This document shows, one piece after another, positions 22,121 through 37,766 of a DNA stretch of 64,000 nucleotides. Positions within the stretch are counted from its first letter, which is position 1. Each line of letters begins with the position of its first letter. The notes beneath the pieces are model-generated. The model did no database searches. It was not told the origin of the DNA and worked only from the letters and a program-made list of their open reading frames with translations. Source of the stretch: Candidatus Thorarchaeota archaeon. GTDB taxonomy: Archaea; Asgardarchaeota; Thorarchaeia; Thorarchaeales; Thorarchaeaceae. The position numbers were made by a program, and so were the translations under genes. Location: positions 46,373 through 110,372 of the forward strand of contig JBHLRZ010000004.1 in NCBI GenBank assembly GCA_048882045.1. Direction: 5' to 3'.

Positions 22121-25100
22121 GTGATGAGGGACATGAGAAAATTCCCATCTTCAATAATTCTACTCTTAATGCTATCCATTCCAATGATTTGGGTGCCTAC
22201 CGTACCTGTGGTTTCCACTATCAATTCAAATCGAGATACTAGTGCTACTTCATCACCTCTAGAATTAAATCAAAATGATCAGGACCCATATGAACTACAA
22301 TCAGCTCCCGTGGATAACCTCCACATTCTCTCTGATGCTGCTCCAGCAGATGGAATTCTCGATCCGCTACAGGTCGAACAATCTGGGTATGTTGCATCAG
22401 ATAACATCTCGGCACGAACGGATAGCTACCAGAATCTAGATTATGCCCTACCACTTGATGTGGGTCATAGTTGGATTGGAGATGTTGCCGAGGTTTCTTT
22501 ATGGAACCTTGAGAAACTCTATGTCGTCAACGGAAGCTTTAACCTTGGCACTCCTGGCACAAATGTCAATCCTACCGGTTCTGTGACCTATCACCCGTTG
22601 GGGTGGGATTCGAACAGCACAGATACTGCGACATACGATGATGATCTTCAACTTTCGGCATACGATAATACCGGTCGACAATATGTCATGGTTGAAAGCC
22701 AAGGGGGAAAGGTGGGTCAGAATGAACATGGACATGTTGCAGGAACCAGAATTGTATGGACTCAGACTGTTCAGAATGCTCCCTATACTGAAGATTTCTT
22801 ACTCAATTTTGATTACTTCTATTTGAGAGGACCTCTAGACAACGGAGGGGCCCCAATAACCGGTAATTGTAGCCTAAAGATTTGGATAAATGGTGCTCCT
22901 GTGTGGAATATGAGTCTTCTAACTGTTGGTCAGAGGGGTGTATGGACTGATGTAGGAGTCATCCCAATCACTGTTACCGGTGCTCCAAGTTCTTTCCTCT
23001 TTGAGATTGGTCTTGAAATAGATCAGACTCTTGTTCTAGACAAGCGGGATGATTATGACAATAATGGCATTGATGATGGCATTGGCAACGCTGCCTACAT
23101 CACAGCGTTCTTAGATGACATCTCGTTCTTGAAGGCAACTCCTCCGACTCCCGACCAAGTGGAACTCCAGTTCACAACTGGAGGATTGACAGCAGATCTA
23201 ACTGGGTCATCGGGTTCATACAGCGCATCAATTACCAATTCGTCTTATTGGGATGCTACTCCTGTTCTTGTATCTCTGACTTCCAATACGAGTGTGTCCT
23301 TTGATTATAAAACTCGCCTCTATGCTCACAGATTTACGGACTCAAATTGGAGGACTGAGGTTTCAAGTCCTGGTGTTGCTTACATTGTTGATCACGGTGT
23401 CAGCTCCGATCTGATAATGTACACATATGTTGGATATCTCGGTGACTATGAAGATTCCGAGATGATGATTGTCTTCCCTGATGACTGGGAGAATCTCACT
23501 ATCTCTGATCCATTCCTGACAGACTTGACCAGTTCATGTACTGTTGGAACTGGTTATCTTATTGTTCCTACTTCAATCATTGATAGTCCCGGATGGTGGC
23601 AAGTCAAACTCAAATCTCCCAACTACGCAAAGACACTCAAGACTCAGGTTCTTGATGGCTCTTGGACTGATGAGATGATATTCCGAATCGACGACTCGAT
23701 CCGAGCTGATATTACTATTGGCACTGACACTCAGACTCTTGGTTTGCTAACCAATGTCAACATAACTTGGTTCAAACCATCTGATACCATCTGGGTTTCT
23801 GAAGTTCTTCCTCCCGGAGGGACCTCGGGACAAATCTATAGCACACCTCGAGTCTTGACATCTGGTTCTTCCCCAGCTGGAGCTTGGTGGGTTGAGGTGT
23901 ACTGGACTAATGGGACAGAGGTGGCATATGATCGGGTCGGTTTCGATGTAGACCACACCTCGAATCTAGTGGGTGATCCTACCGAAATCAGTACTAATGC
24001 TGGCCTGACCATTAAAGGACTAGTTCGTTATACTGATGGGGATACAAATGACCCCATACTGGACGCTTCTGCTACTGTGGAAGGAAACTGGTCTGGAAGT
24101 GTTGTTACCTTTGTGCCAAATCCTGTTCAAAACTGGTGGGAGGCGGATTTCGATACTACCATCGTTGGAGCTGGGGACTTTGTCATAGTAGTGAATGCTT
24201 CGCGGCCTTACTATGATGATGTCAGCTGTCAAATAACTGTTCACTCGATCAATGTGACAAGACTATCATCACCAAATGCACCATGGGCTGCTGCTGAATG
24301 GGGAAGTCTTGTTTCATTAACCTTCAATTATGAGTCATATCATTATGCATCCTCCTCATGGGGGCCAGTGAACAACAATTCCGATGTTTCGGTTAATGTC
24401 AACTGGACAGCTGGATATTGGTCAGTAACAGAAGACATCGTTCCTGGCATCTACAAAATTGACCTTAACACAAACATTGTTGCAGCTGGTACATGGCTGC
24501 TCAATGTTTCATTCAGCAAGCCATATCACGAATCCAAGACTATCTTACTCACTTTGATTCTGTCCCCGATGACTAGTTCACTAACAGTCTTGGGTAATCT
24601 GTCTGAAAGAGTAGATATTGAGGAATCAACTTCTGTAAAAGTTCAGTATAGCTTCAGCAATGGAACTCCAATATCTGGTGCGAACGTTATAGTAGGCGAT
24701 GTATCGCCTGCGAGTGGTTTGAGTCTGACCGTTGTAACTGAGGTTGGAGGCGAACCTGGCAACTATTCTGTGATCCTAACCCCGTATGCCGCTACTGTTT
24801 ACACAATACGATTTGTGGCGACTGGTGATTACTCTGAACCAGCAAGCACGGTCTTTGTCTTGGTTGTAAATGATGTCGAAACTGCTCTATCGATTTATGG
24901 GGATTCGAGCGTGGAGATAGGACTCTCTGAGACTTACAATACGACGTTCCGGTACAACATGATCAACGGTACCGGTGTTGCAAGTGCAGCCATCGACATC
25001 GTTTACTCAGGACCCGTTGGAATGCTCAGATGGAACCTTAGTGATTCTGGATTTGGTAACTATAGTATACAGTTGGAAGCATCGCTCCCCGGAACATATC

Positions 25101-27490
25101 TGATTACGATAGCTGCTTTCAAACAATACCACCAGAGTTCATCGAATTCATTTTTCCTAACGATTAGAAACATTCCGACAAATCTGACTCTACCTGAGGT
25201 AAGCGTTGAAATCGGACTTACTGACTCATATGATATGCTCGTTACTTACGAAATGCTAAATGGAACGGGTATTGAGGGAGCTGTAATAGATGTCATTGCC
25301 CCAGCTTCTGTAAACTCATTAGTCACTCCATTAGGACTGGGTAGCTATAAAATTGAGTTCGGCTCAACAATGTCTGGATCTTTCCTCGTGACAATAGCAG
25401 CATCAAAACAATACCATCAAAGTAGTTCTGAAACCTTTTTCCTCATCGTCCGTGAGATTTCAACTAACATCACCTCCCTCAATGGTACATCTGGTCAAGT
25501 CGGATTTGGAAAAAGCTTTGATTTCTTACTAGAATACACGAACTCCTCCGGGTTTGGTCTGGATGGGGCAAATGTGAGCGTTTTCAGTGTCATCCCTGAA
25601 ATTGGACTGACTTGGGACACGGCCATTCCTCACGGATCTGGTGTCTATTCAATCTTGTTCACGCCAATAGAAGCCAATACATACAATATTGTCATTAATG
25701 CATCATATGACAATCATCGAACCCAATTCCTCTCGTTCGTTCTGATAACCACTCCAATAGCCACGACCCTGAGTCTTCTCAATACTAGTGCTTCAATCTC
25801 CTTTGACCAGGACTTTACAGTTTACATGTTGTACCAGGATGAGGATAACAACCATTTGGAAAACTCGACAATCACAGTACAGGAGATATCAGGTGTTGAG
25901 GTAGCTCCGTTTGAAGAACTAGGTGCTGGGCTATACAGGGTCACAATCAATCCTATAGATCTTGGAATTTTCGATGTGATATTCAAGGCAAGCAAGCCTG
26001 GATACCAGAACGATTCTGTGAGCTTCACTCTTGGCTCTACTAGAATTCCTACAAGTCTAAGAATTGCTAGTGGACTTTCGTCAGATTCAGTGAGATTTTC
26101 AGAAGACTATCAGTTCACTCTATTCTACGAGCGAACTGACACTGATGTGAATGTTTCTTCAGCAACCATTGATGTCCAAGGCGTTCCAAATAGCGGCTTT
26201 TCTTGGTCATATGAAGAATCTGGTGATGGGTATATTGTTACAATCACTCCTGAATATGTGAATACATGGAGATTTACTATTTCAGCACAGCTTGCAGGTT
26301 ATGCAAGTAGAGAACTTGATTTCATCCTCACAGCAGAACCAATTCAGATTCACGCTGAGATGTTGTCAAATCTGTTTGCTGTTGAGGGTGAGAGCTTCAA
26401 TATCAGAGTTAATCTAACTGAAGAGGGAACCAACACTCCCGTCACAGGGGCTCTCGTATACTTTAGACTTACACCTGCTGGAATAACGGGTGCAGGAGAT
26501 CTTCACGAGATGGTGGAAACGGCGACACCTGGAATATATTCAGCATTCTACAGTATTCCACTCTATCTTGACACCACTCAATACACATTGGAAATAAAGG
26601 TCAACAAAGACAACTATGAGCTTCCTGGAGAGTACTTTGTCCAGTCCTTTGCGAAGTACAACGACCTGGTGGTTAGGGTAACCCCATTCATATCAGTTGG
26701 TGCTGTTTCTCTTATTGGACTTGTCAGTCTAGTGACTGCTATGCGTTTTAGGTCAAAGAGACGAAAAGCTCAGATGGATATTGATCTGGCAAACAAACGT
26801 CGTTTTGATGATGCTGACAACATCATCGGCGTGATTGTCATGCACAAGACTAGTGGTATACCAATCTACTCCCGAATAGTCAAGGGAGGATTTGAAGAGG
26901 GGATAGTTGCAGCTTTCATCTCTGCAGTGACATCTTTCCGAGAAGAGTTTGATGCGATTGAGGTCGAGTCAATGACCGTAATCCCGATTTCTGACATTAT
27001 CCGTGCAGTCCAGACACGAAATCTGATCTGCGCATTCATTACGCTTCAATCTGCTTCTATTGAACACAACAGAAAGATGGAATCTTTCGGACAACAGGTC
27101 TCAACCTATCTTGATGACTTCTACACCGAGGCCAGACCTCATTCAATGGTCGATCCTCGAATAGGGGAGGTTTTAGACTATGTCTTTGATGAAACAATGG
27201 ACGGAAAATTGATCAAGTTCTACAAGGCAGCAGACGATGCATCATTCCCACGACGACTTCGGTTACTTGAGCAACTTCTTGTAGATATCGATACACGTCA
27301 TTGCGCCAGACCAGTTCGACTGGCAAAAGGTGTGGCTACATACGGTGTTCCAGAGTCACATGGTTGTACACTCGTACTTGATGCGATAGAAAAGCGTCTC
27401 ATCGAGCCATGTGCCGACGATGATCCCACGGTGGAGGATATAGATTTCAAAGACTTCTTCAGACACAAGAATAGTGAAAGCGCCGAATAG
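22121..27490 (+). CDS. Large type I membrane protein, paralog 3, with about 7 Ig-like stalk repeats; likely start ATG 22133
   Basis: Same head and tail blocks; ~95-aa repeats with NGTG(I/V/L)xGA and GxGxY...GxYxIxIxAxK pattern. Confidence 0.87.
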   Translation: MMRDMRKFPSSIILLLMLSIPMIWVPTVPVVSTINSNRDTSATSSPLELNQNDQDPYELQSAPVDNLHILSDAAPADGILDPLQVEQSGYVASDNISARTDSYQNLDYALPLDVGHSWIGDVAEVSLWNLEKLYVVNGSFNLGTPGTNVNPTGSVTYHPLGWDSNSTDTATYDDDLQLSAYDNTGRQYVMVESQGGKVGQNEHGHVAGTRIVWTQTVQNAPYTEDFLLNFDYFYLRGPLDNGGAPITGNCSLKIWINGAPVWNMSLLTVGQRGVWTDVGVIPITVTGAPSSFLFEIGLEIDQTLVLDKRDDYDNNGIDDGIGNAAYITAFLDDISFLKATPPTPDQVELQFTTGGLTADLTGSSGSYSASITNSSYWDATPVLVSLTSNTSVSFDYKTRLYAHRFTDSNWRTEVSSPGVAYIVDHGVSSDLIMYTYVGYLGDYEDSEMMIVFPDDWENLTISDPFLTDLTSSCTVGTGYLIVPTSIIDSPGWWQVKLKSPNYAKTLKTQVLDGSWTDEMIFRIDDSIRADITIGTDTQTLGLLTNVNITWFKPSDTIWVSEVLPPGGTSGQIYSTPRVLTSGSSPAGAWWVEVYWTNGTEVAYDRVGFDVDHTSNLVGDPTEISTNAGLTIKGLVRYTDGDTNDPILDASATVEGNWSGSVVTFVPNPVQNWWEADFDTTIVGAGDFVIVVNASRPYYDDVSCQITVHSINVTRLSSPNAPWAAAEWGSLVSLTFNYESYHYASSSWGPVNNNSDVSVNVNWTAGYWSVTEDIVPGIYKIDLNTNIVAAGTWLLNVSFSKPYHESKTILLTLILSPMTSSLTVLGNLSERVDIEESTSVKVQYSFSNGTPISGANVIVGDVSPASGLSLTVVTEVGGEPGNYSVILTPYAATVYTIRFVATGDYSEPASTVFVLVVNDVETALSIYGDSSVEIGLSETYNTTFRYNMINGTGVASAAIDIVYSGPVGMLRWNLSDSGFGNYSIQLEASLPGTYLITIAAFKQYHQSSSNSFFLTIRNIPTNLTLPEVSVEIGLTDSYDMLVTYEMLNGTGIEGAVIDVIAPASVNSLVTPLGLGSYKIEFGSTMSGSFLVTIAASKQYHQSSSETFFLIVREISTNITSLNGTSGQVGFGKSFDFLLEYTNSSGFGLDGANVSVFSVIPEIGLTWDTAIPHGSGVYSILFTPIEANTYNIVINASYDNHRTQFLSFVLITTPIATTLSLLNTSASISFDQDFTVYMLYQDEDNNHLENSTITVQEISGVEVAPFEELGAGLYRVTINPIDLGIFDVIFKASKPGYQNDSVSFTLGSTRIPTSLRIASGLSSDSVRFSEDYQFTLFYERTDTDVNVSSATIDVQGVPNSGFSWSYEESGDGYIVTITPEYVNTWRFTISAQLAGYASRELDFILTAEPIQIHAEMLSNLFAVEGESFNIRVNLTEEGTNTPVTGALVYFRLTPAGITGAGDLHEMVETATPGIYSAFYSIPLYLDTTQYTLEIKVNKDNYELPGEYFVQSFAKYNDLVVRVTPFISVGAVSLIGLVSLVTAMRFRSKRRKAQMDIDLANKRRFDDADNIIGVIVMHKTSGIPIYSRIVKGGFEEGIVAAFISAVTSFREEFDAIEVESMTVIPISDIIRAVQTRNLICAFITLQSASIEHNRKMESFGQQVSTYLDDFYTEARPHSMVDPRIGEVLDYVFDETMDGKLIKFYKAADDASFPRRLRLLEQLLVDIDTRHCARPVRLAKGVATYGVPESHGCTLVLDAIEKRLIEPCADDDPTVEDIDFKDFFRHKNSESAE

Positions 27491-27565
27491 CTCTGATTCA
27501 GTGAATTTGTCATAGGTGCATTCTTATCGGAGTCAACATGACGATATTCCAGGAGAGCAATATTC

Positions 27566-28249
27566 ATGAGTCCGGGATTTCTGAGTGACAGACGAGCAGT
27601 TATCGCAATCATCATCGGTGCGATTTTGGCACTTGTGGCTTACTTCGTCATCAAGCCAATCGACACCACGATTTCGTATGTTGTCTTTGGCGTTGCGGCC
27701 CTGCTCTTCGTATATGCATGCATAATGGATGTGGCCGACGAGTTCGAAACACCTGAAAAACCAAAGCCGAAACCAAGGGCTGTTCCTGAACCCGAGTCCG
27801 AAGAAGAGGAACATGCTGAAGAATATGTTCCTGCTGTTGAGGCCCCTGCAGCTAAACTCTCCAAACTTCCCATTGAAACAATCGAGGGGATTGGAGAGAT
27901 CTATGGAAAAGAGTTGAAGGCTGCAGGCATTGCTACGGTCGCTGACCTCATGGTTGCAGATGTAGACAAGGTGGCTGAAGTTACAGACGTTAACAAGGCA
28001 CAGGCTGAGAGATGGATAGCGATGAGTCGCTTCGCATGGCTCGATGAGGTTTCTGAGGAAGACGCAGAAGCAATCGTATTTGCTACTGGGATCTCAGACC
28101 TGAAGTCGCTTGCTGGAGCATCTGCGGATGATATCTACGAAAAGATTCAGACCGCTCTTGACGAGGGTGACGTCCGTGTCCCTGCTGGCTATAAGTTCAG
28201 CAAACATCAAATTCAGACCTGGATCGATGCCGCAAAGAGATTGACCTAG
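27566..28249 (+). CDS. Membrane-anchored helix-hairpin-helix protein (DUF4332-like)
   Basis: Two N-terminal TMs, Pro/Glu linker, IETIEGIGEIYGKELKAAGIATVADL HhH and a second degenerate repeat. Confidence 0.78.
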   Translation: MSPGFLSDRRAVIAIIIGAILALVAYFVIKPIDTTISYVVFGVAALLFVYACIMDVADEFETPEKPKPKPRAVPEPESEEEEHAEEYVPAVEAPAAKLSKLPIETIEGIGEIYGKELKAAGIATVADLMVADVDKVAEVTDVNKAQAERWIAMSRFAWLDEVSEEDAEAIVFATGISDLKSLAGASADDIYEKIQTALDEGDVRVPAGYKFSKHQIQTWIDAAKRLT

Positions 28250-28264
28250 ATTCTGAAGTATTAA

Positions 28265-28287
28265 CCCGGTGATGCCATGTCGCCGGG
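28265..28287. terminator. Hairpin between convergent genes
   Basis: CCCGGTGAT-gccat-GTCGCCGGG with G-U pairs. Confidence 0.5.
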
Positions 28288-28288
28288 C

Positions 28289-29497
28289 CTATGCTCTTTT
28301 TGACAACATTCTTTGTCTGTACAGGAATCCTATAGCTGCAACTAGGACCACGACTGCAATGCTTATGATGGGAATAAAGGGCTCATCATTTGGTTCTGGA
28401 CCTTCGAATATCGAGTTCAGGACATATTCCAGTATCTCTTCGTTGATGTCTTCCTCCATGTTGTCAAAGCTAGCCGTCATTGACATCACAATACTGTAAT
28501 CAGGGACAACATGGATGTATTGTCCTTCAGAACCCATGGCACTGAATACGCCTTGCTCAGAGTCAACCCACCATTGGTATCCATACTCGGGTGCCAATAG
28601 ATCTGCATTGACATAGGGAGTTGAAGACTGCGTCACATACTCCTCCGTCATGATCTCCCTCCCATTCCATGTGCCATTATTCAGATAGAGGAGTCCCAGC
28701 TTTGTCATTGCTCGAGGAGTTACATAGAGCAGAGTTCCTCCATTGTTGATCCCTTGATTGTCCGTCGCCCATCCCCCAATGGTCATGTTCAACGGGTCGA
28801 ATAGGTAGTCCTGTGCGAATGCACGAGTTGTCATCCCAGTCGCTTCCTGGATGATTGCAGAGAGCATGTGTGATGCTCCAGTTGTATACACCCAGTGTGT
28901 TCCAGGATCGTATGCTGTGGGTAGGTCCAGAAAGAACTGGACTGGATCACCTGATTGTAGAAACATCCGGTTGTACATGTTCTCTGGGTCTGAGTATGAG
29001 TTGTTCCACTCATTCCAGTCCAGACCATGCGTCATTGTCAGGAGGTGCTCGAGCGTAATGGCTTCCTTGCGGGCATCCATATTGTCAATGGTCCTGTTCG
29101 GGAAGAAGTCGATCATCCTCTGACTCACATTGTCGATGAATCCCTCCTTGATTGCTATCCCAATCAATGCTCCTGTGAAACTCTTGGTGCAGGAGAAGAT
29201 ATGTCGAGTAGTGTTCTCTGTGTTATAGTTCCAGTACGCCTCCTTCACTATGTATCCGTTCCTTGTGATGACGAGGCCTCGTACGTTTGACCCTGAATCC
29301 TCTATGAACTGCATCATCTGAGTCAGTGTATAGTTGCTCATGTTCTGTTCTTCAGGATCAGTGGCTATCCATGCCTCATCAGGAAAATAGGTGATGCCAT
29401 CTGACAAGACAAATGAGGAGTATCCATTGTTGACTGTCACTTGGGAGAGGATGAGTGCGACCACAAGCGCGATGACCTTCGACCTCAATCTAACCAC
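28289..29497 (-). CDS. Membrane-anchored serine hydrolase, beta-lactamase class C/NylB-like (start GTG 29497 or TTG 29488)
   Basis: SCTK (SxxK), LLTMTHGL, PGTHWVYTT, YGYQWW, AMGSEGQ; signal peptide and C-terminal TM with basic tail. Confidence 0.88.
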   Translation of the reverse strand: MVRLRSKVIALVVALILSQVTVNNGYSSFVLSDGITYFPDEAWIATDPEEQNMSNYTLTQMMQFIEDSGSNVRGLVITRNGYIVKEAYWNYNTENTTRHIFSCTKSFTGALIGIAIKEGFIDNVSQRMIDFFPNRTIDNMDARKEAITLEHLLTMTHGLDWNEWNNSYSDPENMYNRMFLQSGDPVQFFLDLPTAYDPGTHWVYTTGASHMLSAIIQEATGMTTRAFAQDYLFDPLNMTIGGWATDNQGINNGGTLLYVTPRAMTKLGLLYLNNGTWNGREIMTEEYVTQSSTPYVNADLLAPEYGYQWWVDSEQGVFSAMGSEGQYIHVVPDYSIVMSMTASFDNMEEDINEEILEYVLNSIFEGPEPNDEPFIPIISIAVVVLVAAIGFLYRQRMLSKRA

Positions 29498-29795
29498 ATT
29501 ACACTCCTTGGTCTGAGTTGCATATAAGAAAAATGAACAACGCCGTTTCCACACCCAGACACCCTCAGGCCTTCATTTCTTGTGGAACAGGAATTGTATG
29601 GTGTGTAACGGTGGGAGTTCCCAGCGTCTGGATTGAATACTTTGGGAGTATAGTCCACATCATCTCTATGTGATATCCCAGTAATACCAGAGAGCAGCTC
29701 CACATAACGCCAAGTATTATTAGGAAATCGTGATTATCCAAAGGAAGAAGAGGTGTGTTGTACCACACTATTCGAAACGAGCGGTGAAGCGAAAA

Positions 29796-29936
29796 ATGAC
29801 CGAGGAAAAACGACCAACATCCACCCTCCAAAAGAACGCGGAAGTCCTCCATACCCTGTATGGTCTGCTGGACAGTGACCGTGAGCCAACAGACCAGGAC
29901 GCGCAGAGTCTTCGTTACCTGTACGCAAGCTCCTGA
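29796..29936 (+). CDS. Small protein, 46 aa (MTEEKRPTSTLQKNAEVLHTLYGLLDSDREPTDQDAQSLRYLYASS)
   Basis: GGTGA SD at 29783-29787; protein-like composition. Confidence 0.6.
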   Translation: MTEEKRPTSTLQKNAEVLHTLYGLLDSDREPTDQDAQSLRYLYASS

Positions 29937-30104
29937 CTTCCTTTACGATCCTCATTTTCCAATGAGGTCAATTCGCTGTCTCCGTGTGCACCTCCCGGCA
30001 TCATTGAGACACGGTGGGGTCGCAAGCTCCCCTAGGCTTGCACCCCACAACACCTTATGTTGGTGGTGAACACTCCTCTTCCCTTCCCATCCGTGGCGAA
30101 CAAA

Positions 30105-30221
30105 ATGGCTACTACTGAAAAGACAAAGTTGGCTCATTCAAAAGGCACAACCTCTATTCTCCGTAAACATCGACTCAAAGCAGACCGCACGTTACGACGA
30201 CGTCTCAAGACGAGGAAGTAG
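30105..30221 (+). CDS. Small basic protein, 38 aa (MATTEKTKLAHSKGTTSILRKHRLKADRTLRRRLKTRK), not in ORF track
   Basis: ATG context (GCGAACAAAATG) resembles that of 29796; 14 K/R versus 2 acidic residues. Confidence 0.5.
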   Translation: MATTEKTKLAHSKGTTSILRKHRLKADRTLRRRLKTRK

Positions 30222-30265
30222 TTTTGGTTAGTTCTCTTTATCGACACGCTTCAGCATTAGTGAAT

Positions 30266-30283
30266 TTAGAACACGTGTTCTAA
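30266..30283. promoter_or_regulatory. Perfect 18-bp palindrome TTAGAACACGTGTTCTAA, putative operator copy 1
   Basis: Exact inverted repeat ending 56 bp before ATG 30340; recurs at 32595-32618. Confidence 0.72.
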
Positions 30284-30339
30284 TAATCAATAATTTTTGC
30301 TAAGATGTGAAGTTAAATGTACAATAGCAGTGTGATGAG

Positions 30340-32100
30340 ATGAGTGAGATGGCAGTAGCGTTCATGTCAGCACTAGAAAAAGATCCTGGAACCTATGAAG
30401 AGGAGTTCAACAAGATCCTGGATGGAAGAAAAACCCTCATTCATGAGAAGATTCTGAATCTTGTTAGACCTGGAATGCGTGTTCTAGATCTGGGGTGTGG
30501 ACCTGGATCCTTCACACATCAAGCATCATTAAGAGGTGCGGAAGTTGTTGGCGTAGATTCTAATCAACAAATGATCAAAACGGCCCAACTATCAGCAGCT
30601 CTTTTGAAAGAGAGTCCGACGTATTTCGTTGCTGATGTTCTTGAGTTTCTTGAAATTCTTGTTAGGAATCTGTCGCATCCCACGAGTGACTCAAACTACT
30701 CTGATGTCCCAGAGTTGAAACAGAGATACGACCTAGTTGTTAGTACCTTTCTACTATCTGAACTTAAACCCCATCAACGAGAACTATTACTGCAAAGAAT
30801 AAGGTCAGTCCTGACCCAAGATGGTGTAATGGCAATAGCTTCTGAAACATTGCCAGTCGAGAGAAATGAGCAAAGCACGTTTTGGAAACAGAGATCACAA
30901 GCTGAAAAGTTGGCAAAAAAGCGATTATATCCGCCGCTCGAGAGTCTCGAAATGATCACAGAGTTGTCAGGACTAAAGGTCATGGAATTCGAAAAGTATG
31001 GATCCGAGATATCATTAGTCATTGGAACGAGAGGAGATACAACACCAAAATCAACCTACGATAATAAGCATCTCAGGTTCCAAGGAATTGAAGCAAGAAT
31101 TAGAATTTGGTATAATCACTTGACCGGTGGATGGCGTGGAATTCCAATCTCGCCAGGGCTATACTGCTCGGGAAACCCATCAGCTAATAGTCCAGTGGTC
31201 GTGACAGCAAATTACGAATTAACGTACTACACCGTAATGAGAGCACTAACCAAGGACAATATCGATGCTTGGGTTCTTGTATGTGATACAAATGGAATCA
31301 ATGTGTGGTGTGCAGCGAGAGGAATCCACTTTCATACATCCGACGTTGTTGAAATGGTCCAGTTAACAAAATTGACGGATGTGGTTGACCACCGAGAAAT
31401 AATCCTCCCTCAGTTATCAGCGGCAGGTATGAATCCAGAAGAGATTCGTAAGAGAACTGGTTTCAGAGCTCGTTATGGTCCTGTTCGAATTCAAGATCTC
31501 AAGAAGTGGCTTGATCTTAAGAAACCTCGTCCCAAACCTAGAGAAATGGCTACAGTCACGTTCAACTTCAGAGAGAGAATGGAACAAACAGTTGCACATA
31601 TCCCATTTCTATTCGCTGTGCTACTTGGTCGTCCCATCGTAATTCTATTAGGAGTCATTTTTCTCGTCAATGTTGTTGCAATGCTCTTCCTTCAGTTCAT
31701 CTCAGTCCACATCTTTTCTCTTAGCCTTAGTATCTTGTTACTGCTTGTTCAATTTTTGACTGCGTTGTTTGGAAATGCGTTTATGCTTGGACTGATGTTT
31801 CCGATACTTCCATCCAAGGGGAACTCATTTTGGCGTCGCGGGATTGGGCTAGCTGTCATTACACTTCCCATCGCTGTGGTCATAATGTTCTTACTAGGAG
31901 TTCATTGGACTGAATACGTTGTTTGGTTGGTAGCTCAGTTCGTGATGGCAGTTTCTTTAACAATGGATTGGTCAGGAATGACATCAGTGAGTGATCCAAA
32001 GGTGATCGAGCGGGAATATCCATACATGATTAATTTGCTCAAGGTTGGGATTGTTATAATCGTAGGATTAAATATCATTGTTGCACTTATGGGATGGTGA
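30340..32100 (+). CDS. Class I SAM methyltransferase fused to HgcA-like corrinoid-binding domain and HgcA-like TM domain
   Basis: VLDLGCGPG (aa 48-56); PGLY..GNP...SPVVVTANY, DTNGINVWCAARG (Cys324), IILPQL, YGPVR; C-terminal TMs with MDWSGMTSVSD. Confidence 0.88.
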   Translation: MSEMAVAFMSALEKDPGTYEEEFNKILDGRKTLIHEKILNLVRPGMRVLDLGCGPGSFTHQASLRGAEVVGVDSNQQMIKTAQLSAALLKESPTYFVADVLEFLEILVRNLSHPTSDSNYSDVPELKQRYDLVVSTFLLSELKPHQRELLLQRIRSVLTQDGVMAIASETLPVERNEQSTFWKQRSQAEKLAKKRLYPPLESLEMITELSGLKVMEFEKYGSEISLVIGTRGDTTPKSTYDNKHLRFQGIEARIRIWYNHLTGGWRGIPISPGLYCSGNPSANSPVVVTANYELTYYTVMRALTKDNIDAWVLVCDTNGINVWCAARGIHFHTSDVVEMVQLTKLTDVVDHREIILPQLSAAGMNPEEIRKRTGFRARYGPVRIQDLKKWLDLKKPRPKPREMATVTFNFRERMEQTVAHIPFLFAVLLGRPIVILLGVIFLVNVVAMLFLQFISVHIFSLSLSILLLLVQFLTALFGNAFMLGLMFPILPSKGNSFWRRGIGLAVITLPIAVVIMFLLGVHWTEYVVWLVAQFVMAVSLTMDWSGMTSVSDPKVIEREYPYMINLLKVGIVIIVGLNIIVALMGW

Positions 32101-32435
32101 AGAAAATGACAACTGTTACAGCAATATCGAAATTTGGTAGAACAGATTTCATCTATGATCCTAAGAAGTGTAACAGATGTGGATATTGCCTTGAAGTGTG
32201 TGCATTCAATGTCTGGGATTTGCCTGAAAAGGGTCCTGCTATAGTTGCTAGACCAGAAGATTGTACAAATTGTACTGCGTGTGCGAAAAATTGCTTAGGT
32301 CAAGCAATCACTGTTGTTAACTTGGGTTGTGGTTGTATTTGGAATCAAGCAAGTAAACGGAAGGGTAATTGTCAAGAATCAATTGTCGGACCCCTTCTAG
32401 ATGACAATTCATCAAGCTCGTCCTGCTGCGAGTAA
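32094..32435 (+). CDS. 2x[4Fe-4S] ferredoxin, HgcB-like with Cys-rich tail (possible start ATG 32106)
   Basis: CNRCGYCLEVC and CTNCTACAKNC; then LGCGC and terminal CCE; overlaps or abuts the upstream gene. Confidence 0.86.
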   Translation: MVKKMTTVTAISKFGRTDFIYDPKKCNRCGYCLEVCAFNVWDLPEKGPAIVARPEDCTNCTACAKNCLGQAITVVNLGCGCIWNQASKRKGNCQESIVGPLLDDNSSSSSCCE

Positions 32436-32594
32436 TTCAAGTTTCTGAGTTTTATCACTTAGTTTTCCTTACACATCAATAATAATCCACATTTCAATGG
32501 AAGCACAATGACTGAAAAGAGGAAACATTACTTCAGAGTCAGAACCATCTGAGTTGATTTTAGGACTATTCTTTCTTAGTGATTTTTATCGAAC

Positions 32595-32618
32595 ATTTTA
32601 GAACACGTGTTCCAAAAT
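32595..32618. promoter_or_regulatory. 24-bp palindrome ATTTTAGAACACGTGTTCCAAAAT (1 mismatch), putative operator copy 2
   Basis: Shares TTTAGAACACGTGTTC with 30265-30280; ends 61 bp before ATG 32680. Confidence 0.72.
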
Positions 32619-32679
32619 CGCATCATTTTAAGGTGATGCAAGCATCTTTTCATTCCACATTCACTGCAAGGTGTAAGGA

Positions 32680-33354
32680 ATGACTGATACCCTTGGTTCA
32701 AAACTGAAGACAGTTGCTGTCTTCGTCCTCCTCGGATTCCTCATGACGCTGGGGCTGACCGCTACGACCCTCCTCAATCCTGGGGGAGGAAACCTCTACG
32801 AAATACGACCGATTGCAAGTGTGATTGCTGATCTTGTTGCAGCCACTCCACAAGATATCAGCATCAAGCTCGCAAGTCTGGTCGTTGACAATTTCTTCAT
32901 GATTGGCTATTTAGCAATCTTCTACGGGCTCTATCTCCTCACAAAGGAGCAAGAGGAACTCATGGCAAGGGTTGCATTTCTGCTTGGAAGTCTGACTTTC
33001 ATCTCTGACCTGGTCGAGAATGCATTTCAGGTGGCTCTTCTCACAGGAGTTCCTAAAGGTTGGGTACCAGCAGACAATGTCTTCTCATCATTCTGGACTG
33101 TGATGTTTGTGAAGGACATCTCGAGTTACATGGCTGGGTTTACATTCATAGTACTGCTGTTGCTCTCTCTGAGCAATCCTCCTGAGGCAAGAACTGCAAA
33201 GATTGTCTTCGTAATTCTTCTTGGTCTATACGTCGGACTAGGAGTGATAGCGATAATTAATCCCTCCCTCTTGATACTGAGAAATCTCAGCTTCATGCTT
33301 GACCTATTGGTAGCATCAGTGCTCTTCAGACAACTGTCTGGAAAAGTGGGATGA
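32680..33354 (+). CDS. About 6-TM membrane protein of unknown function
   Basis: Hydrophobic helices with intramembrane polar motifs (VDN, DLVEN, KD). Confidence 0.8.
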   Translation: MTDTLGSKLKTVAVFVLLGFLMTLGLTATTLLNPGGGNLYEIRPIASVIADLVAATPQDISIKLASLVVDNFFMIGYLAIFYGLYLLTKEQEELMARVAFLLGSLTFISDLVENAFQVALLTGVPKGWVPADNVFSSFWTVMFVKDISSYMAGFTFIVLLLLSLSNPPEARTAKIVFVILLGLYVGLGVIAIINPSLLILRNLSFMLDLLVASVLFRQLSGKVG

Positions 33355-33369
33355 CGAAAGTCTTATTGT

Positions 33370-33789
33370 TCATTTCGTCTTCCTGACTTCTCGAAGTGAA
33401 ACTACTGCGACTAGATTGACAATCGCAAGTGCAATGAAATAGACGCCATTCAGAAGGTCGACTATTGCTGTGAACCAAAAGATTCCAGCAACTAATGACA
33501 ACAACAAAGTAATGATCGAGACTGATAATGCAGCTGAAACGCCCCAGCTTTCTTTTTGCAAAACTCCTCTGATGACAAGCATCTGTAGGAAGGCAACAAT
33601 CCATAAACCACCCCAGACTATGAACCACATGTACCCGGTTTCCAGTATCAATACTGGCAAGACGATGGTTCCCATAATCAAAATTGCAGAGAGAGCTTGT
33701 GCTAGGAGTGCTCTACCAAGGGGAGTCCTGATTTCGAATGTAGGAGTTTCGTTGGACATAGAATCTTGACCTCCTGACTCGATGCTCAT
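33370..33789 (-). CDS. 4-TM membrane protein
   Basis: Four hydrophobic segments; likely start MSNE after GGAGG. Confidence 0.72.
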   Translation of the reverse strand: MSIESGGQDSMSNETPTFEIRTPLGRALLAQALSAILIMGTIVLPVLILETGYMWFIVWGGLWIVAFLQMLVIRGVLQKESWGVSAALSVSIITLLLSLVAGIFWFTAIVDLLNGVYFIALAIVNLVAVVSLREVRKTK

Positions 33790-34019
33790 CTGGACTCTTT
33801 AACTTAACCCACTGTGTGGTTCATCGTTAGAGTTATATCCATAGATTGAGGTGGTGCGGTAACCTACTTGATTGAAGGCGGGAAAAGAACTCAACGAAAG
33901 AAACGGCAGAAAACTAGTTTCAAAGGTCGCCAATGCGAGACACTCGAGAGTAGAGTATCTTACATCTTTTGCAGACTTTCCGCGTCACTTTAGAGTAGGT
34001 AATCAATATCCAAAGGAGT

Positions 34020-36083
34020 GTGACTAAACTGAATAATTACCCAACCAAAGATCCAGTGCTTGTGACATGCGGACTTCCATATGCAAGTGGTCGGATGCAT
34101 ATCGGTCACCTCAGGACCTACGTGCCTGCCGACGTGTTTGTCAGACTCCTGAAGAAAATGCAAGTAGATGTCACGTTCGTCTGCGGGTCTGACACCCACG
34201 GTACACCTGTCATTGTGCAAGCTGAGAAAGAGGGTCTCACACCAAAAGAGACCTATCAGAAGTACCACAAGATTCTGAAGGACACCTTCCCTCGACTCAA
34301 CATCTTCTTTGATAACTATGGGCACACAGACAATGAGGAGAACCACAACCGGACCACCCAGATTGTCCAGACTCTCGTTGACAACGGACACATCTACGCG
34401 AAAGAGATTGAGACTCCATACTGCGATACATGTGGTCGGTCTCAACCTGACCGTTTTGTACGTGGCGAGTGTCCCTACTGTGGCACAGATGCCCGTGGAG
34501 ATGAGTGTGATCAAGGCTGTGGACGATACATTGAACCAGGTCTGATACTGAACCCACGATGTGCAGTGTGCGGCAATCCAACCCGACCAATCACTAGGAA
34601 ACACCAGTTCCTTCGACTGAGTGCGTTCGAGGACTTCATTGGTGAGTATCTGCTGACTGTAGACGGTACTAAGAATGCGAGGAACTTCGCTTTAGGCTGG
34701 GTCAAAGAGGGCCTGAGAGACTGGTGTATCACTAGAGATCTCGACTGGGGGATCAAGTTCCCAGGTGATGATTCACTCGTCCTCTACGTATGGGTTGACG
34801 CCCCAATTGGATATATGTCGAGCACAGAGCAGTGGGCGAAGAAGATTGGTAAGCCCAATGAGTGGGAGAAGTACTGGAAACCAGGTAATGGACGACTAGT
34901 ACACTACATTGGTCTGGACATCGTTCAGCATCACTGTATATTCTGGCCTGCTATGCTGAAAGGCAGTGAGTATAACCTTCCCTTTGCAATAGTTGCATCT
35001 GGAATGGTCAAGATTGAGGGACACAACTTCAGCAGAAGTCGCGGCTATGTTGTTTGGGTGGAAGAAGACTATCTTGACAGAGGACTGGATCCAGACTATC
35101 TGAGATACTACGTTGCATCATACACCTCTCAGACTAAGGACCTAGACTTCAGTTGGGATGCCTTCTCTGATAAGGTGAACAACGAACTGGTTGCTACCCT
35201 AGGTAACTTCCTCTATCGGGCGATTCACTTCTCACACAAGCACTTCAAAGAAGTGCCAAAGGGAAAGTTGGATTCAAACCTAGAGAAGGAACTTGAAAGT
35301 GCGATCAGTACAATCACTGATGCTATAAACGAGTACGAGCTGAAGAAGGTCGCTGATGAGGTTCTGAGAATCGCATCCGTTGGCAATGAGTACTTTCAAG
35401 CGCAGCAGCCATGGAAGCTCGTGAAGGAGGACAAGGAGAAGACTGGAGAGGTGTTGTTCAATGCCCTTGCATTGTCCAAGGCTTTGGCAATATTCATAGA
35501 ACCATTCCTCCCATCTGCTGCTGAATCAATCTGGGGACAGCTAGGCTTTGAACCGACCCAAGTTCATGAAACCCTCCTCAAGGATACTCTTGTGGTTCCT
35601 GAGGTAGGGACTAAGCTTGGTAAACCAGTCCCAGTGATTTCCAAGATAGAGGAGGACCAGCTAGCTGAACTCAAACAGATCATTAGCGACCGAGTAGCCA
35701 AAGCTAAGGCTGAGCAAACCGGAGAGGTGGAACTGAAATTGGCACCAATTAAAGACACGATATCATTTGATGACTTTCAGAAGATTGACCTTCGTGCAGG
35801 GAAGATTCTGAAGTGTGAGAAGGTGAAAGGCAAGGACCGACTCCTCAAGATCGAGGTAGACATCGGGACCGAGAAACGCACTATGGCGACCGGACTCGGG
35901 CATCTCTATAAACCTGAGGAACTAGAGGGTCTAACAGCCCTCTTCCTGGTCAATCTTGAACCAAAGAAAATTGGCGGCATCGAGAGTCATGGTATGATTC
36001 TCGCTGTGGAGAGAGCTGACAAGGAAGGGACCTGGATTCCTGTCAAGCTCGAAGATCTTCCACCGGGAAGTAAGGCTGCATAG
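34020..36083 (+). CDS. metG: Methionine--tRNA ligase with C-terminal tRNA-binding domain
   Basis: GLPYASGRMHIGH, CGSDTHG, Zn knuckles, YVWVDAPIGY, NFSRSRG (KMSKS site), C-terminal OB domain. Confidence 0.97.
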   Translation: MTKLNNYPTKDPVLVTCGLPYASGRMHIGHLRTYVPADVFVRLLKKMQVDVTFVCGSDTHGTPVIVQAEKEGLTPKETYQKYHKILKDTFPRLNIFFDNYGHTDNEENHNRTTQIVQTLVDNGHIYAKEIETPYCDTCGRSQPDRFVRGECPYCGTDARGDECDQGCGRYIEPGLILNPRCAVCGNPTRPITRKHQFLRLSAFEDFIGEYLLTVDGTKNARNFALGWVKEGLRDWCITRDLDWGIKFPGDDSLVLYVWVDAPIGYMSSTEQWAKKIGKPNEWEKYWKPGNGRLVHYIGLDIVQHHCIFWPAMLKGSEYNLPFAIVASGMVKIEGHNFSRSRGYVVWVEEDYLDRGLDPDYLRYYVASYTSQTKDLDFSWDAFSDKVNNELVATLGNFLYRAIHFSHKHFKEVPKGKLDSNLEKELESAISTITDAINEYELKKVADEVLRIASVGNEYFQAQQPWKLVKEDKEKTGEVLFNALALSKALAIFIEPFLPSAAESIWGQLGFEPTQVHETLLKDTLVVPEVGTKLGKPVPVISKIEEDQLAELKQIISDRVAKAKAEQTGEVELKLAPIKDTISFDDFQKIDLRAGKILKCEKVKGKDRLLKIEVDIGTEKRTMATGLGHLYKPEELEGLTALFLVNLEPKKIGGIESHGMILAVERADKEGTWIPVKLEDLPPGSKAA

Positions 36084-36102
36084 TTATCACTACCATTGAA
36101 GA

Positions 36103-36128
36103 TTTCTGCAGAACCAGTTCTGCAGAAA
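36103..36128. terminator. Inverted repeat after metG, between convergent genes
   Basis: TTTCTGCAGAAC-ca-GTTCTGCAGAAA followed by CTCCTTTTCTTT. Confidence 0.6.
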
Positions 36129-36157
36129 CTCCTTTTCTTTCTAGACCATGTACGGGA

Positions 36158-36538
36158 TCACTTAGTCATGTACGAGTACAGGAATAGGATGAAGAACAGC
36201 GCATAAAGTCCTGTGAATGCCCAGCCAACGACTGGAAGTGTCATTGTGAGCATATTCCATAGACTCGCAACCAAACCAAGTAGAGTCAACAGAATCTCAA
36301 GTATGACTAGTATCTCTACACGGTCGAAGGATTCCTCTCTGAAGGCAAGCAGTGAAATAATTGCTAGGGCAATGAACATTGACCCAAAAGATCTGTCCAT
36401 AGCAATCTCCACCGGCCATCCCATAGAACCGAAGAAAACATCTGGAACTACGAATAATGCGACTCCAAAGAATATAGTCACCAAAAAGTGTAGTATCCAT
36501 GTGTATTTCAAAACGATCGATACCATAATTTTACTCAC
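36158..36538 (-). CDS. 4-TM membrane protein
   Basis: Four hydrophobic helices; GGAGG SD. Confidence 0.75.
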   Translation of the reverse strand: MSKIMVSIVLKYTWILHFLVTIFFGVALFVVPDVFFGSMGWPVEIAMDRSFGSMFIALAIISLLAFREESFDRVEILVILEILLTLLGLVASLWNMLTMTLPVVGWAFTGLYALFFILFLYSYMTK

Positions 36539-36680
36539 TCCTCCACATCTGACAACCAGTCAAATGTACATATGAAAGATTAGTATCTTGTATAAATGAT
36601 TGACGATTCTATATTACGGAACTCAGATTGAATTAATACAAACCGAAAGAATAATATTAACAATAGTTAATTATTCATTT

Positions 36681-37703
36681 ATGAGAAAGACTATACTCGC
36701 ATTTGTGATTTTAATTACAATCTCCCTCATGATGCCAGCAATTGCAGCCCATGTCCCCATATCTGCACAGGATGGAGAATCATTAGAAACTGCGTACTTC
36801 ATTGAGGAACCAACAAAGAGTTGGGTTATCTATTCAGAACTTCGTGAAGCTGGACATCCACAATATTTCGCGTTTGAAATGGATGCTGGAACAAGAATCA
36901 GGATGATGCTTTCGATTCCTGTCACCACTGATCCGACGAGTCTTGACCCTTCTATCGCTCTCATGGGTCCTGGAATTACTAACTCAACCTCGATTCCTAG
37001 TTTTCTTGAGATACCAGAATCCGCAGGTGCGATGATTTTAGAGAGTGAGTTGGCAATCCGTGAGTATGAAGGCTTTACACCAACGAGCTTCTACGCATTG
37101 ATCGATGTGGATATACAGGCTCCAACCACTGGAGAGTACTACTTCGCGGTCTACGACGAAAGTGACGAAGGTTCATTCTCTGTTGCGCTGGGATATGTGG
37201 AATCATTCACGCTTGAAGAATGGCTTCTCGTTCCATTCAGTGTAATGACGATTCATCAGTGGAATGGTCAGAGTTTTCTTTCAATCCTTGCTCCAATGAT
37301 TAGCACACTTGTTCTCGGATTTGGATTACTTTGGACTCGAAGAACTGAACTCAAGGAACTAGACAACGGTGTCAGCTGGGTTGGCGCATTAGGTGCACTC
37401 CTTTTCTTTGGGAGTGGTGTCACCATATTCTATCAAATTGTGCTCTCAGCTCTTTTTGCAGTTAACTTCCAGATAATCATCTCTGCTGTGTTCGGAATGC
37501 TTCCCATCTTGCTAGGTGTGTTTACAATACGGTTGGTACTGACTGAGAATTGGCAAAGCATGAGATCAAAACAGATTCGACTGCTTATACTAGGAATAGT
37601 TTCTCCATTTCTTTGGGCAGGTCTACTTATCGGTCCTTCTTTGGTCATTCTTAGTGCAATCTTTGCTATCATCAAAACACGTAGTGATCTCAGCACAAAT
37701 TAA
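36681..37703 (+). CDS. Exported beta-domain protein with C-terminal multi-TM region
   Basis: MRKTILAF signal peptide at ATG 36681; GEYYFAVY beta-sandwich; 4-5 TMs. Confidence 0.78.
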   Translation: MRKTILAFVILITISLMMPAIAAHVPISAQDGESLETAYFIEEPTKSWVIYSELREAGHPQYFAFEMDAGTRIRMMLSIPVTTDPTSLDPSIALMGPGITNSTSIPSFLEIPESAGAMILESELAIREYEGFTPTSFYALIDVDIQAPTTGEYYFAVYDESDEGSFSVALGYVESFTLEEWLLVPFSVMTIHQWNGQSFLSILAPMISTLVLGFGLLWTRRTELKELDNGVSWVGALGALLFFGSGVTIFYQIVLSALFAVNFQIIISAVFGMLPILLGVFTIRLVLTENWQSMRSKQIRLLILGIVSPFLWAGLLIGPSLVILSAIFAIIKTRSDLSTN

Positions 37704-37715
37704 ACAATTTCGGCA

Positions 37716-37739
37716 GGAGCCTGACAATCAACAGGCTCC
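37716..37739. terminator. Hairpin between convergent genes
   Basis: GGAGCCTG-acaatcaa-CAGGCTCC. Confidence 0.55.
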
Positions 37740-37766
37740 AAAACGAAATTTCTACAATAAGAACGC

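Follow-up and report, generated by a model that had tools for sequence, protein, structure and literature searches.

A SAM methyltransferase fused to an HgcA-like corrinoid membrane protein and paired with an HgcB-like ferredoxin in Asgard archaea: a candidate methyl-transfer system outside the canonical mercury methylases

The mercury-methylating pair HgcA and HgcB, as found in Pseudodesulfovibrio mercurii ND132, combines a corrinoid domain derived from the corrinoid iron-sulfur protein (CFeSP), with an NVWC cap helix that carries a Cys ligand, a transmembrane (TM) domain of five helices, and an adjacent 2x[4Fe-4S] ferredoxin with a post-cluster Cys and a terminal CC. In 2024, purified HgcAB was reported to be methylated at Co(I) by S-adenosylmethionine (SAM), and not by methyl-tetrahydrofolate, and to contain a Co-S(Cys) bond (PMC11588087). 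Curated NCBI models already exist for two related proteins, the HgcAB-like fusion, which has the ferredoxin at its C terminus, and its partner methyltransferase CpaM, usually encoded by a separate gene. Here we analyze a gene pair from a 64,000-nucleotide (nt) stretch of DNA (hereafter the window) of a Candidatus Thorarchaeota archaeon (GCA_048882045.1, contig JBHLRZ010000004.1, positions 46,373 to 110,372). The first gene encodes a CpaM-type SAM methyltransferase fused to an HgcA-like corrinoid and membrane protein (the fusion), and the second encodes an HgcB-like ferredoxin. Our favored interpretation, which we hold with slightly better than even confidence, is that the pair constitutes an HgcAB-type methyl-transfer enzyme, anchored in the membrane and built of three modules, in which a methyl group is relayed from SAM to cobalt and on to a thiophilic metalloid.

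The window pair shares with HgcA and HgcB all the architectural traits listed above, the probable use of SAM as methyl source and, across the family, the recurrence beside arsR and ars genes. It differs by its N-terminal CpaM domain, by a cap helix that ends in RG where that of HgcA ends in GK, by a ferredoxin that has CTNCTAC in place of C(M/I)ECGAC and extra Cys residues in a GCGC motif and at position 93, by scores under both curated cut-offs, and by its place in the other half of the HgcA tree. The HgcAB-like/CpaM system, a true member of which is encoded in the same genome on contig C39, occupies the same half of the tree, and its partner methyltransferase is of the same family, down to the invariant residues, but the CpaM of the window is fused N-terminally and its ferredoxin is a separate protein with a long Cys-bearing tail. 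CdhE and CdhD (AcsC and AcsD) possess a homologous corrinoid-binding Rossmann-like domain, corresponding to the C-terminal part of PF03599, but have no TM domain, cap-helix Cys ligand or SAM domain. ArsM is also a class I SAM methyltransferase of ars operons, and adjoins the fusion in at least one genome, but it methylates As(III) directly, with no corrinoid. In the reactivation of MetH (SAM domain, flavodoxin and cobalamin), SAM likewise methylates reduced cobalamin and a small redox protein gives the electron, whereas the SAM-binding fold is another one, the protein is soluble and the reaction is a repair rather than the main cycle. What appears to be new is a clade defined by the cap helix NVWCAARG, with an N-terminal CpaM, a separate Cys-rich ferredoxin and a place in ars operons, which lies outside the curated models and which no paper that we found describes; the window copy is an ordinary member of this clade without ars context.

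Both open reading frames (ORFs), and every motif that had been listed in a previous inspection of the window made without database searches (the sequence-only reading), were confirmed (coordinates in Table 1). In the fusion these are the SAM motif VLDLGCGPG (residues 48-56), the corrinoid-domain motifs SPVVVTANY (284-292), ILPQL (355-359) and YGPVR (379-383), Cys324 (codon at nt 31309-31311) and the TM-domain motif MDWSGMTSVSD..IERE (542-559). The ORFs overlap by 7 nt and the ferredoxin is translationally coupled. Since orthologues and the database record begin at MAVAF..., the true start of the fusion is probably the second Met-Ala (nt 30349, 583 amino acids [aa]). Class I methyltransferase families of Pfam span residues 36-215 (Methyltransf_25, 6e-13), followed by the C-terminal part of CdhD (1e-19), and the downstream protein matches Fer4 families; the NCBIfam matches are HgcAB_like (5.7e-62), HgcA_corrinoid (7.1e-59), CpaM (2.4e-31) and HgcB (2.2e-12). 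The AlphaFold2 model of the fusion, computed from an alignment of 48 homologues, is confident (mean pLDDT 89, pTM 0.82) and predicts a Rossmann-type methyltransferase, a corrinoid domain with a cap helix at 322-328 and five long TM helices. Its best fold match in the PDB is a computed HgcAB model, 9a0b_A, and a sequence search of the PDB returned no HgcA relative with an experimental structure. Pfam, NCBIfam, model and fold search thus agree with the earlier proposal of a class I SAM methyltransferase fused to an HgcA-like corrinoid and TM protein. The fusion is real: the same full-length architecture occurs in at least 161 homologous proteins, nearly all from Asgard metagenome-assembled genomes (MAGs), and related genomes carry it. 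An artefact of assembly or gene calling was rejected because the ORF is continuous and more than 100 genomes conserve it. The closest homologues carry the name Thorarchaeota, in line with the Asgard origin proposed beforehand.

In the corrinoid domain, the match to PF03599 is limited to profile positions 269-381 of 387 (fusion residues 271-385, 1e-19), and the domain matches the gamma (large) subunit of CFeSP in the PDB with an E value of 4e-9. A misannotated CdhD or CdhE was ruled out, because the C-terminal corrinoid part alone matches and the true CdhD and CdhE are encoded on contig C9. Among 48 fusions, down to 28% identity, G319 and N321-G328 of the cap helix are invariant and I320 nearly so, and ILPQL and YGPV are invariant or nearly invariant. 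Cys324, the equivalent of the cap-helix residue Cys93 of ND132 HgcA, is invariant. The HgcA-type C-terminal domain of about five TM helices is present at residues 410-583 of the model, where DSSP assigns helices to 410-450, 452-489, 497-518, 523-547 and 553-583. The conserved loop DWSG..IERE between the last two (542-559) is predicted to contact the ferredoxin, with interface residues at 542-563.

The ferredoxin contains the cluster motifs CNRCGYCLEVC (residues 26-36, nt 32169-32201) and CTNCTACAKNC (57-67, nt 32262-32294), followed by GCGC (78-81, nt 32325-32336) and the terminal CC (111-112, nt 32424-32429). The two CX2CX2CX3C motifs expected of HgcB and the adjacency to an hgcA-type gene are therefore present, and GCGC aligns with the post-cluster GVGC of canonical HgcB (Cys73 equivalent), which together with the terminal CC bears out the HgcB-like assignment of the sequence-only reading. 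C79, C81 and C111 are invariant in nine ferredoxins, while C93 and C112 are common, not invariant. In a predicted complex, fusion and ferredoxin reached an ipSAE of 0.71 versus 0.00 for the best control. In a benchmark, 58 of 80 solved complexes attained this mark, as did 2 of 110 mismatched pairs; these counts hold only roughly, because our own alignments were used and ligands were included in the runs. The runs share at least 86% of contacts, with a partner pLDDT of at least 68; memory of the predictor is possible, given that a computed HgcAB model exists in the PDB. The predicted interface involves the invariant ILPQL and YGPV and the TM loop on the side of the fusion, and both cluster motifs and GCGC-WN on the side of the ferredoxin, and this contact would explain why the interface motifs are conserved.

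The methyltransferase domain scores 108.8 bits against CpaM (NF043040), below the cut-off of 180 yet by far its best family (40 bits for the next), and a loop inserted at about residues 107-127 adds to the shortfall; the domain of the sister-type protein P0104 reaches 137.1 bits. In an alignment of the window type, the Loki type (see below), triple fusions and the stand-alone CpaM of locus L020, M9, E13, P16 and Y19 of the lid, GxGxG at 52-56, D73, D131 and E169 are invariant, and because these residues are common to all four forms we consider the domain a diverged CpaM on sequence grounds. The CpaM family, which the sequence-only reading had brought up, thus exists, and the invariants are those of a bona fide CpaM beside an HgcAB-like gene: in L020, the stand-alone CpaM gene (220 bits) ends 6 nt before the HgcAB-like gene (396 bits). 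The fold resembles the small-molecule class I methyltransferases ChlM, CysG and CmoA in a structure search. G52, G54, G56 and D73 of the SAM motif are invariant or nearly so across the 48 fusions, and the methyltransferase is fused in every 5'-complete locus among 80 species-representative loci. The paralogue on contig C39 (7687-9618, minus strand) is a 643-aa triple fusion of CpaM, HgcA-like protein and 2x[4Fe-4S] ferredoxin, with the cap helix NVWCASCG, and it passes the cut-offs of both CpaM (241.6 bits) and HgcAB_like (358.5 bits). The recurrence of adjacency, N-terminal fusion and triple fusion suggests, by Rosetta-stone reasoning, that CpaM acts on the corrinoid protein, and this linkage and the shared invariants fit SAM as the methyl donor to cobalt. 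We also considered ArsM for this domain and rejected it, as the fusion is not among the genome's matches to NF008823 at 1e-10 or better, whereas the true ArsM, on contig C6, scores 317 bits. Our literature search found no paper naming CpaM or describing an N-terminal methyltransferase of HgcA-like proteins.

The two proteins are, by sequence, strongly related to HgcA, the HgcAB-like fusion, CpaM and HgcB, yet they fall below every curated cut-off. Besides the CpaM score given above, the fusion obtains 210.3 bits against HgcAB_like (NF043039, cut-off 285) and 199.6 bits against HgcA_corrinoid (NF040863, cut-off 275), and the ferredoxin 46.7 bits against HgcB (NF040864, cut-off 99). By the high-stringency motif criteria published for the HgcA cap helix and HgcB (PMC10087281), NVWCAARG departs from the accepted N(V/I)WC(A/S)(A/G/S)GK and CTNCTAC from C(M/I)ECGA. 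The layout of NF043039, with the ferredoxin on the same chain, is absent in the window pair, whose ferredoxin is a separate gene. In an exhaustive search of representatives that yielded 1092 relatives, the cap helix tracked the architecture among the best 150: NVWCAAGK is found in stand-alone proteins, NVWCAARG in methyltransferase fusions with a separate ferredoxin, to which it is specific, and a variable NVWC(A/S/G)xxG in ferredoxin-fused forms. Accordingly, canonical representatives reach 380-429 bits against HgcA_corrinoid and fail HgcAB_like, ferredoxin-fused representatives fail the former and reach 336-396 bits against the latter, and the NVWCAARG clade fails both.

A maximum-likelihood tree of 135 sequences separates two halves with a Shimodaira-Hasegawa-like approximate likelihood ratio test (SH-aLRT) support of 100; it was built without an outgroup, and the root between the halves was adopted from Lin et al. 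2023 (PMC10083202). The canonical HgcA clade (91 rows) contains no methyltransferase, none of its long N-terminal extensions that we checked being one, so that the earlier statement that canonical HgcA has no such domain holds for all 91 representatives. The noncanonical clade (44 rows) holds all ferredoxin-fused and all methyltransferase-fused forms. Within it, the window protein belongs to the 19-row NVWCAARG clade (support 91), which comprises two subclades (99 each), the Thor type of 570-586 aa and the Loki type of roughly 550 aa. Taken at sequence level, the pair is thus not a canonical HgcA/HgcB and forms part of a distinct NVWCAARG clade in the noncanonical half of the tree. Lin et al. 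placed Asgard sequences in their "fused HgcAB" subtree and dropped the leading 327 columns of their alignment, because these aligned poorly (PMC10083202). As a separate observation on canonical genes, the hgcB beside the canonical hgcA of locus L028 (3200-3500) has an in-frame TGA at the Cys73 equivalent (GVG*AA), with the frame running on to the terminal CC, and is probably a selenocysteine form of HgcB.

HgcA-family genes were found in 138-139 of 301 Asgard genomes sampled (139 at 1e-20 or better), but a single one of these genomes exceeds the canonical HgcA cut-off, with a match on a 3.5-kb contig in a genome with 9% contamination. Because of these two counts, "Asgard hgcA" in environmental surveys with relaxed thresholds are probably these paralogues and not mercury methylators. 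The type of the window (55-100% identity) was found only within its own family, and even in the genus its distribution is patchy, matches at 1e-20 or better being confined to 9 of 24 genomes. When one genome per species was scanned with an alignment of the corrinoid domain, 186 loci with a noncanonical cap helix emerged, the best 80 of which, the species representatives referred to throughout, were inspected. They come almost entirely from Asgard lineages (Thor-, Hermod-, Hod- and Promethearchaeota), and one source is the complete genome of Ca. Lokiarchaeum ossiferum Loki-B35, which has been cultured. Loci of the family also occur in MAGs labeled Nanopelagicaceae, Terriglobia and Bathyarchaeota/Bathyarchaeia (L073, L085, L089, L099), and the layout of L073 is nearly identical to that of Promethearchaeota loci; such oddly labeled loci may reflect misbinning or gene transfer. 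An HgcB-like gene lies downstream of the fusion in 66 of the 80 loci, nearly always with GCxC and usually with the terminal CC.

The nature of the acceptor is approached through gene context. Among the 80 loci, 11 of the 21 of the Thor type have a co-oriented gene for a 130-aa regulator of the ArsR/SmtB family directly upstream and none has acr3 in this position (either gene, 11), whereas the 55 Loki-type loci have a divergent arsR in 33 cases and acr3 directly upstream in 27 (either, 40), and the 4 triple fusions have neither. In Ca. L. ossiferum, the order is arsR (divergent), acr3, fusion, hgcB-like gene and a cation diffusion facilitator (CDF) transporter gene, the Acr3 scoring 286.4 bits (cut-off 282.8). 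The C[VI]C pair in alpha-3, familiar from As(III)-sensing ArsR, is present in all full-length linked ArsRs, in most of the Loki type it is joined by an N-terminal CxCxxC, and orthologues with 55-62% identity to the window fusion retain an ArsR with a CVC site. In the Loki type, the HgcB-like gene is followed by two small proteins without Pfam family, in 21 and 19 loci, respectively (L070:4258-4587 and 4731-4967; L071-L088), the first of which has an ACACEW motif and, in some versions, Cys-rich extensions. Both may be further parts of the operon; they resemble ArsD by eye, but have no Pfam match, so that we make no claim to ArsD. In genome G210 (C6:630237-632730), 35 nt separate the end of a bona fide arsM (348.9 bits) from the fusion gene downstream of it, so that a single ars cluster holds both ArsM and the corrinoid system. 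ArsM occurs in 151 of the 301 Asgard genomes, and a replacement of ArsM by the fusion is visible as a weak trend, in that the family with most fusions (f9) has the least ArsM (23/68), although many genomes hold both. Ars genes also adjoin canonical bacterial hgcAB (PMC7438021), as does an ArsR that responds to arsenic and S-adenosylhomocysteine (SAH) (10.1101/2022.10.17.512643), and methylcobalamin methylates As(III) without enzyme under reducing conditions (reviewed in PMC6950371). The linkage to arsR and acr3 in orthologues and in the sister clade lends independent support, at the level of sequence, to the proposal of the sequence-only reading that the acceptor may be a metal(loid) other than Hg.

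The surroundings of the window copy are different. The 785-nt gap upstream of the fusion holds two conserved small ORFs, and contains no Rfam family and no tRNA; a search for an arsR pseudogene by tblastn found nothing. Compared with the congeneric locus L023, the DNA of the 46-aa ORF shows 31 mismatches at one codon phase versus 12 and 11 at the others, and the spacer between the two ORFs (29940-30020) is nearly invariant and rich in hairpins, with no match in Rfam. The near-perfect palindrome AGAACACGTGTTCT has 9 sites in the genome versus 0 for the reversed control; besides the two of the window (Table 1), they are found at C2:33115-33725 (4 sites), C22:10180, C34:12156 and C48:10960. These sites look like a regulon, and their targets give no pointer to the substrate. 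L023 has a single operator copy, ahead of a 227-aa gene that precedes the fusion. The 224-aa membrane protein encoded downstream of the pair in the window has no Pfam match and belongs only to unnamed Atlas clusters. We regard it, from its conserved neighborhood, as a genus-specific companion of the fusion: in close relatives its gene appears to be in one operon with the fusion, because it lies upstream of it behind the single operator. In L023 and L024, homologues of the 139-aa protein (31-32% identity) are encoded on the other strand immediately behind the ferredoxin gene.

Table 1. Coordinates of the gene pair, its domains and its neighborhood (window positions)
Feature	Position (nt)	Strand	Remarks
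Fusion gene	30340..32100	+	586 aa; CpaM-type SAM methyltransferase, HgcA-like corrinoid domain and 5-TM domain
CpaM-like class I SAM methyltransferase domain	30340..31035	+	Residues 1-232
HgcA-like corrinoid-binding domain	31144..31539	+	Residues 269-400; homologous to C-terminal part of CFeSP large subunit
Cap helix GINVWCAARG with putative Co-ligand Cys324	31294..31323	+	Residues 319-328
Transmembrane domain, five long helices	31567..32088	+	DSSP on AlphaFold2 model
HgcB-like 2x[4Fe-4S] ferredoxin	32094..32435	+	113 aa; NF040864 match, conserved position, complex model
Small ORF, 46 aa	29796-29936	+	45/46 identical in congeneric genome L023
Small ORF, 38 aa	30105-30221	+	Very basic; conserved
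Palindromic operator AGAACACGTGTTCT	30268..30281	.	59 nt upstream of fusion start codon
Second operator copy AGAACACGTGTTCC	32600..32613	.	67 nt upstream of 224-aa membrane-protein gene
Polytopic membrane protein, 224 aa	32680..33354	+	Homologues (75-80% identity) immediately precede the fusion in L023, L024, L049 and L055
Three-helix membrane protein, 139 aa	33370-33789	-	Convergent with the locus

Our current working hypothesis is that the HgcB-like ferredoxin would reduce the corrinoid in the HgcA-like domain to Co(I), that the fused CpaM-type domain would bind SAM and hand its methyl group to Co(I) to give CH3-Co(III), with Cys324 of the cap helix as a protein-derived axial ligand of cobalt, and that the methyl group would then pass to a thiophilic metal(loid) held by the ferredoxin cysteines (GCGC and terminal CC) at the membrane face, the most likely acceptor being As(III) or a related metalloid and not Hg(II). 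From what was computed, namely the domain composition, the conservation of catalytic and ligand residues, the recurrent linkage and fusion of CpaM with HgcA-family proteins, the predicted interface and the arsR/acr3 linkage of relatives, we infer the transfer from SAM to cobalt by the CpaM domain, the Cys-on ligation and the identity of the acceptor. The relay from SAM over cobalt to an acceptor, as such, seems likely to us on the grounds of architecture, conservation and analogy. That the acceptor is a thiophilic metal(loid) is an evenly balanced call, suggested by the gene context in relatives and least firmly for the genus of the window, and arsenic in particular is put forward tentatively.

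Several observations weigh against this interpretation. No arsR or acr3 is present within positions 25000-38000 of the window, the acr3-arsR pair and the arsM of the genome lying away from the locus on contigs C40 and C6, and a genome that already holds a bona fide ArsM would make methylation of As(III) by the fusion redundant. The palindrome AGAACACGTGTTCT also precedes genes for an IorA-like protein, an alanine dehydrogenase/saccharopine dehydrogenase, a GT4 glycosyltransferase and a major facilitator superfamily (MFS)/LysW-like protein, which include genes of amino-acid catabolism but no metal genes. Since related genomes are not independent, independent events are fewer than the linkage counts suggest, and regulators of the ArsR/SmtB family sense many metals and some of them SAH. 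Finally, canonical HgcAB takes the methyl group of SAM without a methyltransferase domain (PMC11588087), and the CpaM domain might act otherwise.

Some of these points would fit an acceptor that is no metal(loid) at all, such as a thiol, a lipid or quinone, or a small metabolite at the membrane, which we consider unlikely in general but which may suit the genus of the window in particular. The window locus without ars genes, the operator shared with genes of IorA-like, saccharopine dehydrogenase, GT4 and MFS type, the 224-aa membrane protein in one operon with the fusion in close relatives, and the triple-fused paralogues, none of the 4 being linked to ars genes, all point in this direction, but the ferredoxin has preserved the Cys-rich traits that characterize a metal-binding HgcB, and the ArsR with a CVC site is retained by orthologues as close as 55-62% identity. 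We find it improbable that the pair is a genuine mercury methylase, that is, an HgcAB orthologue with the conversion of Hg(II) to methylmercury as its natural or main side reaction and a CpaM domain that only speeds the methylation of cobalt. The fold family, the cap-helix Cys, the five-helix TM domain, the post-cluster Cys and terminal CC of the ferredoxin, and the fact that SAM is the donor for HgcAB (PMC11588087) would all agree with such a function, but the fusion lies beyond the fully supported split from the canonical clade, both proteins remain under the HgcA and HgcB cut-offs and depart from the accepted motifs, and isolates whose only such genes are fused HgcAB-like ones, of the half of the tree to which the fusion belongs, did not methylate Hg when tested (PMC10083202; PMC10087281).

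We give similarly little credence to the idea that SAM domain and ferredoxin serve only as a module for reductive reactivation, as in MetH, while the cycle itself draws on a different methyl donor and acceptor. The set of electron donor, SAM and corrinoid does correspond to the established logic of MetH reactivation, and corrinoid proteins oxidize easily, but the 80 loci show no recurrent methyltransferase of the MT1/MT2 type or other enzyme that would donate methyl groups, and their conserved core is the fusion, the ferredoxin, and a regulator or transporter, and SAM is the stoichiometric donor for HgcAB (PMC11588087). Very improbable, in our opinion, is a function in Co(I)-based reductive dehalogenation or in the processing of halomethanes, a role lately proposed for HgcAB; the heterologously expressed proteins are reported to dechlorinate CCl4 (2026 preprint, 10.64898/2026.04.26.720869). 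Reductive dehalogenation has no use for a SAM methyltransferase domain, which is strictly conserved in the fusions, and none of the neighbors seen in the loci is related to dehalogenation.

The proposed relay from SAM over cobalt to a thiophilic metalloid bears on questions of the mercury methylation field, namely what the original job of HgcAB was, how its cobalt gets methylated, and why hgcAB lies near arsenic genes. The repeated linkage and fusion of CpaM to corrinoid proteins of the HgcA family provides genomic support for SAM as the donor, independent of the biochemistry of 2024, and the linkage to arsR and acr3 is now seen in a second, deeply separated branch of the HgcA family, in archaea. 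A methylcobalamin route of arsenic biomethylation has long been postulated in anaerobes. It is possible, if rather doubtful at present, that the NVWCAARG clade represents the enzyme of this route for As (or Sb), encoded in ars operons and independent of ArsM, in which CpaM would load a Cys-ligated corrinoid and a thiolate-bound metalloid would be methylated at the membrane. Since the cultured Ca. L. ossiferum holds a sister-type copy within its ars cluster, this hypothesis is directly testable. If it is true, the ancestral job of the whole HgcA family would be SAM-fed methylation of metalloids, and not the methylation of mercury.

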